27,218 nt of DNA, from assembly GCA_945957185.1 (NCBI GenBank), contig CAMFKA010000001.1, forward strand, positions 1 to 27,218. Reading direction: 5' to 3'. A program made the translations under genes and the position numbers. Positions 10,168 to 27,206 of the stretch are shown here, one piece after another. Source of the DNA: an uncultured Chlamydiaceae bacterium. GTDB taxonomy: Bacteria; Chlamydiota; Chlamydiia; Chlamydiales; Parachlamydiaceae. How positions within the stretch are numbered: the stretch's first letter is position 1; every line of letters begins with the position of its first letter. The notes beneath the pieces are model-generated. The model was not told the origin of the DNA and searched no databases. It saw only the letters and a list, made by a program, of their open reading frames with translations.

Positions 10168-11781
10168 ATGGCAGCATCAACAAGTTTAGCGACACCAATC
10201 AGTTCTCAAAGGATTTCTTGGTTAGATCTTTGCGCTACACGCAAACGACAGTTTCTTGAACCGTTACAAGCATGTATCTACGATCAGATTTCCCCCGAAA
10301 AAATTGCGAAGACTGATTCAAGGGGCTATAAAAAATATTATCCATTCACTGTTTATACCAGACGGCAATCACACACATTTTATATCTATCAGGCCTCTCT
10401 GACACTACTAGGATTGTCTGTTGACGAAATGAACCGAAAAAAAAACTGTTACTACTACGTATCCAATGGATTAAAAAGGCTGAATGAAGAGAAAAAGTGG
10501 AGATTGAGACTTTTTTATCCGATTTTTAAACAATATTTAAGGCACGAACAGTTTCAGGATGTATGTAAACCGCAAGAAGTGGATCCTAACTTTCTCTCTT
10601 ATAATAAATACAACCTTGTGCGGTTGTTTTTAGGGGCAATAATGCACAGTTCACGGCAGATTCGATCCAGCAAATTGAGCAATCCCGTGACTGATGTAGA
10701 ACAGCTAATATGTACAACCTCTTGGAGACTTCCGGAAGGAATGTTCAATGCAATCGTCACCTATGATGCTGTATCCATTTTTTCCCCTATCGGCACTTTG
10801 AAGGAGTCAGGAAGCTTTTGTAAAGCTTATCGTGTTTTTAATTACACAGAAGGGTGTGTTCAAATCCAACTGAAACCTAATTGTATCGAATTTCCCGAAA
10901 ATGGAGATGACCTTTTTGCCAATGCAAAAAATTTAGAGCACATGAAACGAGGCATTAAAATTACGGAATACCTCTATAAAAAAAGTGCTTCAAAACGCCT
11001 TTATGGAATTGTCGATGCACCCGCAATCTTGGCTTATTCGAAACCTTATTCAGCAACAATCTATCAAGATACCATTACGACCAAATACGATTATCCGCTC
11101 GATGAGTATGTCTTCAATCCTACAATACCATCTTATCAAATATCGAGCATCGTCAGCTGTATCCGGCAATTATTTCATGCGATAACGTATTTGAGAAAAC
11201 ATCACGTTATCCATGGAGACATCAAAATGGAGAATATTCTTGTAAAAGGCACAGCGACTTTTGCTCTCGCTGATTTTGGCGGAGCGATTTTAGAGAGCGA
11301 AGCGGCTCCTAATTTGAATTCAGTCCTTCAAACAACTTTTTCCGACGTCTATGTCAATGGAAATGATTTACTTCAGATAGTTGGCGCGGTAAAAAATAGT
11401 GCTCTCAAGACATGGAGAGAGATATCCTATGCGCGAGATTTAGCTGCCACCGCATTAGTTTGTTTACAGATGGTCGCCAGAAAAGAGATTTTGCCGGAGC
11501 GAACCACTCATCTAACAGCTCTTCATGCTCTCTATGATGGATGTGAAGGGTTTAGCGGTGAAGATGCTGTAAAAAAATTCCCTTCGTTATTGGATTTATC
11601 GCAAATACAACCCACAACAATCGAGTCTGCGTTCAAGAGTGCAGGCATTCGCAACACTTCTCTCATACAACTATTTAAACGTTGTTTGTCCAATAATTAC
11701 CGAATCCGACCGGTGGCTAAATACGCCTCGGCACATTTTACTGCAATTGCGCCTTTAGTGTTGTGTGAGAGCACATTATGA
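10168..11781 (+). CDS. Ser/Thr kinase-like protein, paralog 3 (putative secreted effector)
   Basis: Motifs ESGSF, QIQLK (Lys at 10873), HGDIKMEN (from 11212), DFGG, RDLAAT and IRPV. RBS GAGGG. Confidence 0.85.
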   Translation: MAASTSLATPISSQRISWLDLCATRKRQFLEPLQACIYDQISPEKIAKTDSRGYKKYYPFTVYTRRQSHTFYIYQASLTLLGLSVDEMNRKKNCYYYVSNGLKRLNEEKKWRLRLFYPIFKQYLRHEQFQDVCKPQEVDPNFLSYNKYNLVRLFLGAIMHSSRQIRSSKLSNPVTDVEQLICTTSWRLPEGMFNAIVTYDAVSIFSPIGTLKESGSFCKAYRVFNYTEGCVQIQLKPNCIEFPENGDDLFANAKNLEHMKRGIKITEYLYKKSASKRLYGIVDAPAILAYSKPYSATIYQDTITTKYDYPLDEYVFNPTIPSYQISSIVSCIRQLFHAITYLRKHHVIHGDIKMENILVKGTATFALADFGGAILESEAAPNLNSVLQTTFSDVYVNGNDLLQIVGAVKNSALKTWREISYARDLAATALVCLQMVARKEILPERTTHLTALHALYDGCEGFSGEDAVKKFPSLLDLSQIQPTTIESAFKSAGIRNTSLIQLFKRCLSNNYRIRPVAKYASAHFTAIAPLVLCESTL

Positions 11782-11889
11782 ACAAGGCAACGCGGAGACG
11801 CAGAGGCGCTAAGACGCGGAGTTTTTTTGACTAAAAAGCCCTCCGCGTCCCTGCGTCCCCGCGCCTCCGCGTTGTCTTGCTATTGTTCC
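11780..11889. repeat. GC-rich octamer inverted-repeat element, family A copy 1 (short core)
   Basis: Four RCGCRGRG-like units (11790-11821, one degenerate) and four inverted units (11841-11872). The element fills the whole gap between two convergent stop codons. Confidence 0.9.
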
Positions 11890-12600
11890 TTAATATGGGC
11901 AATCTAAAACGTTATTCTGCATACACAATGCCGCTTGAATTGCCATCTGTAGCTCCTTTTTGTCTACACCGGGAAGGTAGTAACTGTTTTTTTGCATTTC
12001 AGCAACGACTTCGTTAGAACGGATAATTTTATACAACCAATCCCAATTCGGCGGAGCAAGAGAGATCGTTCCCTGATGCAAAAAACCATGTCGCGTTCTT
12101 CTCTGGGCACCTCCGGAGACTTTCATTCCATTGCAAACGACATCTAGAACAGTGGCTTTTGTCATGCAAAATCGTCCTAGAGGTCCTTCAGCACGAGTAT
12201 CGTTTTCTAACAACTCTAATTTATCTTTGACAAGACTTTCCAAAGCGTTTTGAATCTTTTTGTTTACGAAACAGTAATTCGTTAATGTATCTGTAGTGTA
12301 GTAAGGGGAGTCGCTTGGTACTAATACGGAAAATGTCATGTCCGTAAAATGACAGATGACACCTCCTCCGGTAGGCCTTCGAGCAATATCGACGCCTAAA
12401 CGGGCGATTTCATCTAAATTTAGGAGATCCTCGGGTTTTACGAAATGACCATAAGTCAAGCTTGGGGATTGCCAAGCATAAAAGCGCAACAAATGTCGGG
12501 GTTGTAACTTTAAATCTGCGAGAAGATCGCTATCGATCTGCATATTTTCGTTGGCGGAAAGAGTTCCGGAATCGAGGGTTTCCCAAAAAATTTTTGTCAT
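11890..12600 (-). CDS. Lipoate-protein ligase A / LipM-like family protein (catalytic domain only)
   Basis: Motifs NMQIDSDLL, LRFYAW, RRPTGGG and KVSGGAQ...LHQGTI. Confidence 0.88.
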   Translation of the reverse strand: MTKIFWETLDSGTLSANENMQIDSDLLADLKLQPRHLLRFYAWQSPSLTYGHFVKPEDLLNLDEIARLGVDIARRPTGGGVICHFTDMTFSVLVPSDSPYYTTDTLTNYCFVNKKIQNALESLVKDKLELLENDTRAEGPLGRFCMTKATVLDVVCNGMKVSGGAQRRTRHGFLHQGTISLAPPNWDWLYKIIRSNEVVAEMQKNSYYLPGVDKKELQMAIQAALCMQNNVLDCPY

Positions 12601-12666
12601 AAATAGTGCCTTTTACGACATTTTTAGCCCTTTTTTCGATAAAAATCTAGCGGAAATGTATGGGTC

Positions 12667-12675
12667 TGGTATACT
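12667..12675 (+). promoter_or_regulatory. Putative extended -10 promoter (TG-N-TATACT)
   Basis: TGGTATACT about 27 nt upstream of ATG 12703. No clear -35. Confidence 0.45.
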
Positions 12676-25695: not shown

Positions 25696-25814
25696 GGAAC
25701 TCCTCGCTGCTCTCGTCCTTTCTTTTTGGATCATAAGGATTTACTGAATTTATTGTTATTTTTTTGAGAACGTGCCACCATGACGACTTATTAATCAATG
25801 GATATAGGTTGAGA

Positions 25815-27089
25815 ATGGACCCCTTAGATACTTTTTCCCACTTGATGATTGCTGTTTTTGCCATCGGATACATCTTCATTACCATTGAAGAGTGGACAAA
25901 AATCAACAAAGCAACCGTTGCACTCATGATGGCGGTGTTGTGCTGGACGATTCAATTCATGGATCCCTACTGGCCGTTGCATCATAAAACGGGAATCTTG
26001 GGGGAACACCTCAACAACATCAGCCAAGTCATTTTTTTTCTTTTAGGAGCGTTGACGGTCGTGGAGATCATCAACGTCCACAAAGGTTTCGATGTGCTGT
26101 CGGATGCGATGCAGATCAAATCAAAAAGGCAAATGCTTTGGACAGTCTCTCTGATCACATTCTTTCTTTCAGCAATTTTAGATAACCTCACAACAACAAT
26201 CGTCATGATCACACTTTTGCAGAAATTAGTGGAGAAAGGGGAAGATCGACTATTGATGGGAGGTGCCGTAGTCATTGCAGCAAACGCGGGAGGTGCATGG
26301 ACACCTATTGGAGACGTCACGACAACGATGTTGTGGATTGGTGACCGCTTGACAACGATGAATATCATCCAATCACTATTCATCCCCAGTATCGTTTGTG
26401 CTGTTGCCGCTGCGATCATTTTAAGCAGATCACTCAAAGGAAATTTTTCTTCCGAAAATATGATTTTAGGAGACAAGAAAGCAGAACCGCTTGGACGTCA
26501 AATCTTCTGGCTTGGAATTGTTTTGTTGATGTTAGTGCCGGTTTTTAAAATCGTTACAGGATTGCCGCCATTCATGGGGATGTTGTTTGCTTTGAGTCTC
26601 ATGTGGATCATTACCGATATTCTTCATCACAAGTACGAAGATAGAAATCATCTAAGAGTTCCCTCCGTTCTCACAAAAATTGACCTCAGCGGCACCCTAT
26701 TCTTTCTTGGGATTTTGCTGAGCATTGACGCGTTGGATTCAGCGGGCATTTTAGAAGCCCTTGCACAATGGCTCGATAAAAACATCGGCAACGTCGAAGT
26801 GATTGGAGTTGCCATCGGTATCGCTTCCGCAGTAGTCGATAACGTGCCTCTTGTCGCCGCTGCGATGGGAATGTACGATCTCGAACAATTCCCGCGCGAT
26901 AGCGCATTTTGGGAACTGATCGCTTTCTGCGCCGGAACAGGGGGAAGCATGTTGATCATCGGGTCTGCTGCTGGAGTGGTATATATGGGGCTGGAAAAGG
27001 TCAGCTTCATTTGGTACGTCAAGCGGATCACTCTTCCAGCGACAGTAGGGTATTTTGCCGGGATCGCAGCTTATCTACTATTTAGATAG
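25815..27089 (+). CDS. nhaD: NhaD family Na+/H+ antiporter
   Basis: Motifs FFLSAILDNLTT, ANAGGAWTPIGDVTT, SAVVDNVPLVAA and GTGGSMLIIGSAAGV. Start placed at ATG 25815, preceded by AGGT; the track start at 25764 is a TTG with no RBS. Confidence 0.93.
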   Translation: MDPLDTFSHLMIAVFAIGYIFITIEEWTKINKATVALMMAVLCWTIQFMDPYWPLHHKTGILGEHLNNISQVIFFLLGALTVVEIINVHKGFDVLSDAMQIKSKRQMLWTVSLITFFLSAILDNLTTTIVMITLLQKLVEKGEDRLLMGGAVVIAANAGGAWTPIGDVTTTMLWIGDRLTTMNIIQSLFIPSIVCAVAAAIILSRSLKGNFSSENMILGDKKAEPLGRQIFWLGIVLLMLVPVFKIVTGLPPFMGMLFALSLMWIITDILHHKYEDRNHLRVPSVLTKIDLSGTLFFLGILLSIDALDSAGILEALAQWLDKNIGNVEVIGVAIGIASAVVDNVPLVAAAMGMYDLEQFPRDSAFWELIAFCAGTGGSMLIIGSAAGVVYMGLEKVSFIWYVKRITLPATVGYFAGIAAYLLFR

Positions 27090-27108
27090 ACCTTGCTGCG
27101 TAAAAAAA

Positions 27109-27206
27109 ACCACTGAGCCAATGAGAACACTGAGAAATATGAGAATAGTCATATCGTTCTACTGCCTTGTTGCATAATTAACCACTGAGCCAGTGAGATC
27201 ACAGAG
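27109..27206 (+). repeat. CACTGAG repeat, family B copies 2 and 3, with an intervening ATCGTTCT unit
   Basis: ACCACTGAGCCAATGAGAACACTGAGAAATATGAGAATAG (27109-27148), ATCGTTCT (27153-27160) and ACCACTGAGCCAGTGAGATCACAGAG (27181-27206), all downstream of the nhaD stop. Confidence 0.85.

Follow-up and report, generated by a model that had tools for sequence, protein, structure and literature searches.

The stretch of DNA analysed here (the window; 27,218 nucleotides) is contig C1 of a metagenome-assembled genome (MAG), G000, which originates from fish-gut metagenomes and comprises 1.85 Mb in 220 contigs (80% complete). Its gene content is chlamydia-like, with an Hc1 histone-like gene and three TLC nucleotide transporters. 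The subject is a set of short tandem arrays in the gaps between the open reading frames (ORFs) of the window, together with a small nuclease gene, GxxExxY, which is found between such arrays elsewhere. The gaps are at 11782-11889, 14375-14785, 17218-17558, 22410-22608, 25113-25239, and 27090 to the contig end. A sequence-only reading of the window had claimed that all six hold arrays of three unit types: A (ACGCRGRG), B (CACTGAG-like), and C (AACGATAN). Tandem Repeats Finder (TRF) detected period-8/9 arrays at 11843-11872, 14432-14449, 17333-17364, 17441-17473, 22530-22549, 25154-25190, and 27111-27136, and direct reading of the sequence confirmed the units in all six gaps. The claim stands with one reservation: the gap around 14419 holds only a miniature C palindrome of one plus two units, and its CACTGAG at 14507-14513 is a single unit at chance level. 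Every copy in the window sits between protein genes.

The A, B, and C arrays form the inverted arms of foldback elements that are dispersed, measure approximately 100-350 bp, have a fixed order of units, and are nested in one another. This inverted pairing went unremarked in the sequence-only reading. Each arm is built of three or four head-to-tail units of 7-9 nt (up to 12 units in C), and the purine-rich arm comes first. Either strand, or a transcript, can fold into a stem of 24-32 bp.

The full-length form of family A is seen at 17302-17540. This composite consists of an outer motif (17302-17312), an arm (17333-17364), an AT-rich core of 77 nt (17365-17441), the second arm (17442-17473), and the outer motif TTAGGTTGACGC (17529-17540), with a folding energy of -78.4 kcal/mol (z -11.2). 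On one side lies the 3' end of the upstream gene (17559), and on the other the consensus promoter of the next gene. The latter is a perfect TTGACA-18-TATAAT promoter-like site with an extended TG (17229-17258, minus strand), directly downstream of the A element and upstream of the gene at 16180-17217. In the composite at 22412-22583 the core is inverted relative to the 17302 copy; its arms are at 22432-22455 (plus a degenerate unit to 22463) and 22526-22549, its outer motif is at 22572-22583, and it folds with -63.3 kcal/mol. The third copy, at 11790-11893 between convergent kinase-like and lplA-like genes, is a short-loop variant: the arms (11790-11821 and 11841-11872) are separated by a loop of only 19 nt, and a conserved outer flank occupies 11873-11893 (RNA fold, -56.8 kcal/mol; z -8.2). 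The A stems are very stable, at -57 to -78 kcal/mol, with z values of -8 to -11.

The palindrome at 14419-14449 is a degenerate member of family C, with one AACGATTG unit, a 5-nt loop, and two TATCGTTC units, and folds weakly (z -1.6). The same gap (14375-14785) contains a Lys-rich small ORF of 37 residues and its own strong terminator hairpin on the minus strand (14474-14504 and 14524-14637), so that the gap is effectively convergent. The remaining two gaps had been described as mixed clusters of units. The mixing is real; these are in fact nested or truncated composites. At 25113-25251 lies the right half of a composite family B element with a family C palindrome nested inside it: the reverse C units are at 25113-25133, the forward C units at 25154-25186, and the right B arm at 25211-25236, followed by a flank resembling the B terminus up to 25251. 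At 27109-27218 two left ends of family B stand in tandem. The first belongs to a truncated element, with its arm at 27109-27134 and internal sequence, including one TATCGTTC unit, up to 27163; the second has the B terminus at 27164-27180 and its arm at 27181-27206, and reaches the contig end. In the window, three arm classes are seen together, and nested, in a single host-associated genome of reduced size.

The same families are dispersed throughout G000. TRF gave 231 rows of period 8, 165 of period 9, and 27 of period 7, and the commonest units were ACTGAGCC, ACGCGGAG/ACGCGGGG, and AACGATAN. The arrays are far above chance, both in the window and genome-wide: the patterns of A, B, and C were counted 140, 82, and 143 times, against 5, 0, and 0 for the reversed-pattern control. 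The polarity of the inverted pairs (F..R versus R..F) was 31:0 for A, 25:0 for B, and 11:3 for C. Family A has 87 arms, all following one ordered 32-nt arm, of which 17333-17364 is the type. Its core is conserved, AT-rich, and approximately 74 nt long, and is replaced in the short-loop variants by 5-35 nt; outside the arms are further palindromic layers ending in GCGTCAACCTAAT / ATTAGGTTGACGC. Pairwise identity among A copies is 87-91% in the arms, 70% in the core, and 50% in the outer flanks. Family B has 85 arms in 25 pairs; its termini, of the CCTTGTTGCATAATTA type, lead into three CACTGAG-like units, and its interior exists in several variants, some with a nested C palindrome. The C palindromes are also free-standing, with 3-12 units. 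More than 40 copies of A and B have an identical order of unit variants. Arms are frequently found at contig ends, which means that they break the assembly.

Two further array families were noticed in G000. Family D consists of inverted arrays of AAGGAC-type 8-9-nt units, with up to 12 or more units per arm, loops of 170-240 nt, and four F..R pairs (for example, C40:11578-11868, C86:85-411, and C128:2079-2165); no associated gene was found. Family E comprises 75 arms of GGGCAR hexamers beside a conserved motif of approximately 30 nt, GGGTGAAGTTACT...GCATCTGGTG (for example, C8:3682-3711, C13:1114-1149, and C20:138-167). Its polarity is opposite to that of A and B (24 R..F, no F..R), and it is not linked to any gene. 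A CRISPR array was rejected as an identity for the arrays, as the units are contiguous, without unique spacers. No Rfam family matched at the gathering threshold in 11000-27218 of the window.

The position relative to genes differs among the families. Approximately 95% of the arms lie outside ORFs genome-wide. The sequence-only reading had seen no arrays in divergent gaps or inside genes; this is correct for the window and nearly so for genes throughout G000, but 12 of 36 B gaps and 7 of 24 C gaps are divergent. A 3'-end bias shared by the families, which had also been proposed, was found for A only. According to a crude ORF caller, on which all these orientation counts rest, the background comprises 137 convergent, 629 tandem, and 210 divergent gaps, whereas the A-bearing gaps number 19, 10, and 2, respectively, a strong convergent bias. 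The corresponding values for B (8/16/12) and C (6/11/7) show no such bias. A terminator scan found no canonical intrinsic terminator signature at the A stems.

Comparison with G001, a genome of the same genus (ICDH 81% identical; symporter-ICDH-kpsF order kept), indicates that the elements were inserted. The counterpart of the 22412 element is a convergent gap of 17 bp, and that of the 25113 element is a gap of 22 bp with only a simple hairpin, versus 199 and 127 bp in G000. The arrays are thus absent from the orthologous gaps, and the triple-unit pattern of A was not found in G001. In addition, direct repeats of 8-11 bp flank three of the eight evaluable B copies and none of the permuted flanks. 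They measure approximately 9 bp once the terminus is placed consistently. Target duplications were scored for B; the composite ends of A are buried in the further palindromic layers.

It should be mentioned that the A arms are themselves a target. An insertion sequence (IS) of the IS4 family (Tn5-like), approximately 1.5 kb long, codes for a transposase of 470 residues with the domains Tnp_DNA_bind, DDE_Tnp_1, and Dimer_Tnp_Tn5. It has seven junctions in the G000 assembly (C16:16548, C58:10640, C62:23, C63:25, C88:25, C117:6759, and C188:3780), and every one of them falls within a family A arm. A full copy (L199; G037:C334:1-1501) and identical ends are present in G037, a genome from another family of the order. 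An autonomous IS with A, B, or C terminal repeats was found neither in G000, an 80% complete MAG, nor in 40 relatives.

The gene connected with the arms was recognized on another contig of G000. On C180, an ORF of 131 residues lies exactly between two consensus A arms, and its product is a GxxExxY protein (TIGR04256, E 4.9e-40; PF13366, E 3.1e-38). The sole other copy in G000 (C3:14339-14740) abuts a long C palindrome on one side, and C-type arms are also present at the GxxExxY loci L137, L139, and L152. B termini and arms flank GxxExxY genes in the relative G030; such termini number 11 in G030 and 41 in G000. All three families are therefore arm types that bracket genes of one nuclease family, and the single grammar which the sequence-only reading had proposed for them is supported in this form.

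The bracketing is general. The gene is present in 27 of 41 relatives, often with fragments, and nearly all full-length copies are bracketed by inverted arrays of three or four units of the CACAGAG, CGCAGAG, CGCAAAG, CACAAAG, CACCGAG, AACGAT, or CAGGAT type. The same arrangement was observed in five genomes from other phyla, a set picked for arrays and hence biased. The search for genes consistently flanked by arrays, which had been recommended, gave a periodic inverted bracket for 16 of the 29 GxxExxY genes from the relatives and these five genomes, versus 0 of 389 small ORFs of G000 (Fisher 2e-21). Among metagenome loci picked by protein motifs alone, 42 of 67 had a bracket, which was periodic in 37; 11 of 134 permuted flanks also scored, since the same arm families recur at different loci. 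Of the relatives, 16 of the 27 that carry the gene have class-I arrays, as do 2 of the 14 that lack it (p 0.008, with kin that are not independent). The triple-unit pattern of A itself is present in more than 120 contigs across many phyla, often as inverted pairs, in carriers including Sphingomonas, Nostoc, Pyrinomonadaceae, Longimicrobium, Planctomycetes, and Chloroflexi; at three of these loci a GxxExxY gene lies between or beside the arms.

In G018, G021, and G022, the dispersed gene-less copies match the arm sequence of the resident gene; two such gene-arm families exist in G021, one with 105 dispersed arms and the other with 29. Identical arms of 23-24 nt (CGCAAAG-type and CACAGAG-type) are present in different genera of the family (G021, G022, G006, and G005). 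The CACAGAG family of G021 is arranged R-16 nt-F, the reverse of the polarity in the window. The arms abut the start and stop codons of the gene, and their GGAG/GAGG ends resemble ribosome-binding sites. In G000, consensus A arms 940 bp apart at C2:23775-24745 (L188) enclose an ORF of 136 residues and approximately 360 nt of upstream sequence; the ORF has no Pfam match and may represent a different cargo within the same arms.

The cassette protein has 125-135 residues and belongs to the PD-(D/E)XK nuclease family. Glu33, Asp73, Glu83, and Lys85 are invariant in 29 sequences, together with the GxxExxY motif. The AlphaFold model (pLDDT 94.6) has a minimal core like those of Cas4, lambda exonuclease, and RecB; a Foldseek search of the PDB returned only generic cores of these kinds, with TM scores of 0.5-0.57, and a sequence search of solved structures with the GxxExxY protein returned nothing. 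The GxxExxY family (PDDEXK_3) is very large: the C180 query retrieves 18,791 clusters at 50% identity (E <= 0.001), of which the best-scoring (P0001-P0012) are proteins of 266-295 residues with two GxxExxY domains in tandem. A family survey gives the function of PF13366 as unknown (PMC3424549).

The protein subfamilies track the unit class. In the protein tree, proteins with AACGAT/CAGGAT arms, including that of C3, form a long separate clade (100/99); those with CGCxxAG arms, including that of C180, form another (97/96), and the CACxGAG-armed group stands apart. At the level of residues, Thr/Ala at position 12 and Gly-Glu/Lys-Arg at position 13, both in helix 1, track base 5 of the unit in the raw comparison of a larger set (0/500 permutations). 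As a recognition signal, this covariation is suggestive only.

These observations lead to the following interpretation. The anatomy of the elements, their dispersal with conserved arms, their insertion relative to the sister genome, the cross-phylum association of gene and arms, and the conserved catalytic residues are matters of observation. It seems likely that the A, B, and C arrays are arms of gene-less foldbacks of the same kind as the GxxExxY nuclease cassettes, and that their copies are driven or maintained by the cognate nuclease. The nuclease would recognize the arm or its hairpin and act at the DNA level. G000 keeps one A-armed and one C-associated nuclease gene along with tens of gene-less copies per family, much like REPINs and their RAYT gene. 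Copies would persist where they are harmless, which for A means mostly the 3' ends of genes; there, the stem may double as a terminator or RNA stabilizer. Regarding the generator, the sequence-only reading had offered both slippage and a dedicated nuclease or transposase: the latter fits the GxxExxY brackets, and the former fails for A and B, whose copies share their unit order.

Several points weigh against this interpretation. The action of the nuclease on the arms is putative, being suggested by the match of protein clade to unit class and by the raw covariation, and for residues 12 and 13 only three well-supported independent contrasts are available, which are non-significant after phylogenetic correction. 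A target duplication of approximately 9 bp would also be left by a DDE transposase. A B-armed GxxExxY gene was not found in G000, which is 80% complete, and arrays occur without a detectable GxxExxY gene in two relatives, G001 and G016. The A core is not evident as a deletion derivative of the resident cassette. When the Logan contigs of four fish-gut runs (low depth, approximately 4-5x) were compared with the window, no empty alleles were seen; the contig joints were all traceable to other repeat copies. Finally, G035 has 67 GxxExxY matches, and its full copies (L174-L186) lie just downstream of a DDE_Tnp_1 gene within a repeated unit, so that the cassette is multi-copy there only through riding in a DDE-transposase element. 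As passengers, these copies were rejected as definers of the cassette ends. G035 also has many dispersed C-terminal GxxExxY fragments of approximately 55 residues.

The stability of the A stems, their enrichment between convergent genes, and the contact of the arms with start and stop codons through ends resembling ribosome-binding sites would also suit a module working at the RNA level. The arms would then fold into a stem for RNase III-type processing or for termination, which lets the nuclease mini-gene sit harmlessly in host transcripts, and the gene-less copies would be decayed cassettes kept as terminators or stabilizers at 3' ends. However, the gene-less A and B copies (10-25) have common non-coding cores and termini with no trace of a gene, and therefore A and B multiplied as gene-less units. 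B and C have no 3' bias, B has apparent target-site duplications, and neither a canonical terminator signature nor an Rfam match was found. This explanation is unlikely as a whole, and an RNA-stem role is plausible as a secondary one compatible with the cassette interpretation, especially for A at 3' ends. The duplications at B copies, the cassette inside a DDE_Tnp_1 element in G035, and the IS4-family element in G000 could be expected if the elements were ordinary miniature inverted-repeat transposable elements (MITEs) of DDE insertion sequences, with the arrays as subterminal transposase-binding repeats and the GxxExxY genes as passengers or preferred neighbours. Such an origin is quite improbable: the genomes searched yielded no IS whose ends match A, B, or C, the ends of the IS4-family element are unrelated and the element inserts into A arms, bracketing is the rule across phyla for a gene of 130 residues that has no transposase nearby, and the protein clades follow the arm class.

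Opposite-strand pairs of tandem units resemble multimeric protein-binding sites, and in Geobacter metallireducens they have been read as binding sites through which a global regulator or a nucleoid protein controls the neighbouring genes (PMC2700814). For the arrays of the window this is very improbable, as they are missing from the orthologous gaps of the congener, often occupy convergent gaps, which lack a promoter, differ in family between genera, and are located within dispersed elements. Independent microsatellites generated by slippage can hardly be entertained at all. The C arrays do range from 3 to 12 units, and slippage probably only lengthens these; tens of A and B copies, on the other hand, share the order of unit variants, conserved flanks, and inverted partners, and this common order refutes a slippage origin of the two families.

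If the cassette interpretation is correct, the gene-arm link explains all six gaps of the window by one mechanism. A wider proposal is more tentative: GxxExxY proteins might be the enzymes of unrecognized, very widespread prokaryotic mobile or selfish elements, in which a minimal PD-(D/E)XK nuclease recognizes hairpin or cruciform arms made of octamers in tandem, with co-evolving specificity, and spreads both the cassette and gene-less foldbacks. In that case, G000 would host three specificity classes at once. Octamer-array palindromes are common in the intergenic DNA of many phyla and have so far been read as regulator sites. Linking them to GxxExxY makes both a testable system, with a candidate new mobilizing enzyme and a target that looks sequence-programmable. 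The arrays are also strong hairpins at gene ends and hotspots for IS insertion and for breaks in MAG assembly. What is new here is that a single genome has three arm classes and that each of them maps to a protein clade. The way they nest, the statistics of their orientation, the apparent target duplications of B, and the insertion of an IS into A arms are new as well.

Literature searches, including chlamydial MITEs, short tandemly repeated repetitive sequences (STRRs), and tandem octamers, retrieved no publication linking octamer arrays to GxxExxY, and few mentions of GxxExxY were found, in passing. Known systems resemble the elements in part. Eukaryotic foldback (FB) transposons have long inverted ends made of short tandem repeats. 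ORF-bearing intervening sequences of 23S rRNA have a long stem whose loop contains a small ORF of selfish appearance; this arrangement is a shared feature, but the elements described here are not in rRNA and have no Rfam match, and the four-helix-bundle protein of intervening sequences (TIGR02436) is absent from G000. The bacterial interspersed mosaic elements (BIMEs) of enterobacteria and the STRRs are repeats that lie between genes, with a bias to 3' ends. A BIME is a mosaic of single palindromes, whereas the foldback arms are tandem octamers. Cyanobacterial STRRs have a period of 7 and, to our knowledge, are not reported as inverted pairs bracketing genes; membership was rejected, as the period here is 8-9, the units are different, and the host is chlamydia-like. 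With MITEs the elements share a small non-coding body, inverted ends, apparent target duplications at a few of the B copies, insertions nested in one another, and variants with internal deletions; they differ in that neither G000 nor its relatives yielded an autonomous DDE partner whose ends match, the sole coding partner being a nuclease of 130 residues.

The closest published description of octamer-array pairs is that of the paired "global regulator binding sites" (classes 1-3) of G. metallireducens (Aklujkar et al. 2009; PMC2700814), so that the sequence-only reading, which had suggested an undescribed repeat system, was nearly right: the paired arrays had been published, and the link to GxxExxY had not been found in print. 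The structure matches, with opposite-strand pairs of 3-5 tandem 7-8-nt units, variable spacing, and tens of copies. These sites were interpreted as IHF/HU-type regulator sites, without a link to a nuclease gene or to mobility (PMC2700814). Insertion sequences lie at a fixed distance from them, as the IS4-family element lies within A arms here; the insertion into A arms parallels ISGme8/9 beside the Geobacter sites.

At the level of mechanism, the closest analogue of the foldback/GxxExxY system is REPIN-RAYT, in which doublets of repetitive extragenic palindromic (REP) sequences occur with REP-associated tyrosine transposases (Bertels & Rainey 2011; PMC3116915). Membership in this system was rejected, as the A, B, and C arrays do not flank the four Y1_Tnp (RAYT/IS200-like) genes of G000 (C66:6353-6688, C81:6635-6979, C139:5380-5718, and C16:205-543). 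Long non-periodic palindromes of their own enclose at least three of these genes (C16, C66, and C81), and therefore a classical REP-RAYT-type system coexists with the octamer arrays. The two systems are unlike in their enzymes, a PD-(D/E)XK nuclease here and a Y1 (HUH) transposase there, and in their arms, tandem 7-9-nt units here and a single REP palindrome there. They are alike in having hairpin-forming inverted pairs scattered between genes, one or a few enzyme genes flanked by the same repeats, and a separate repeat family for each gene subfamily.

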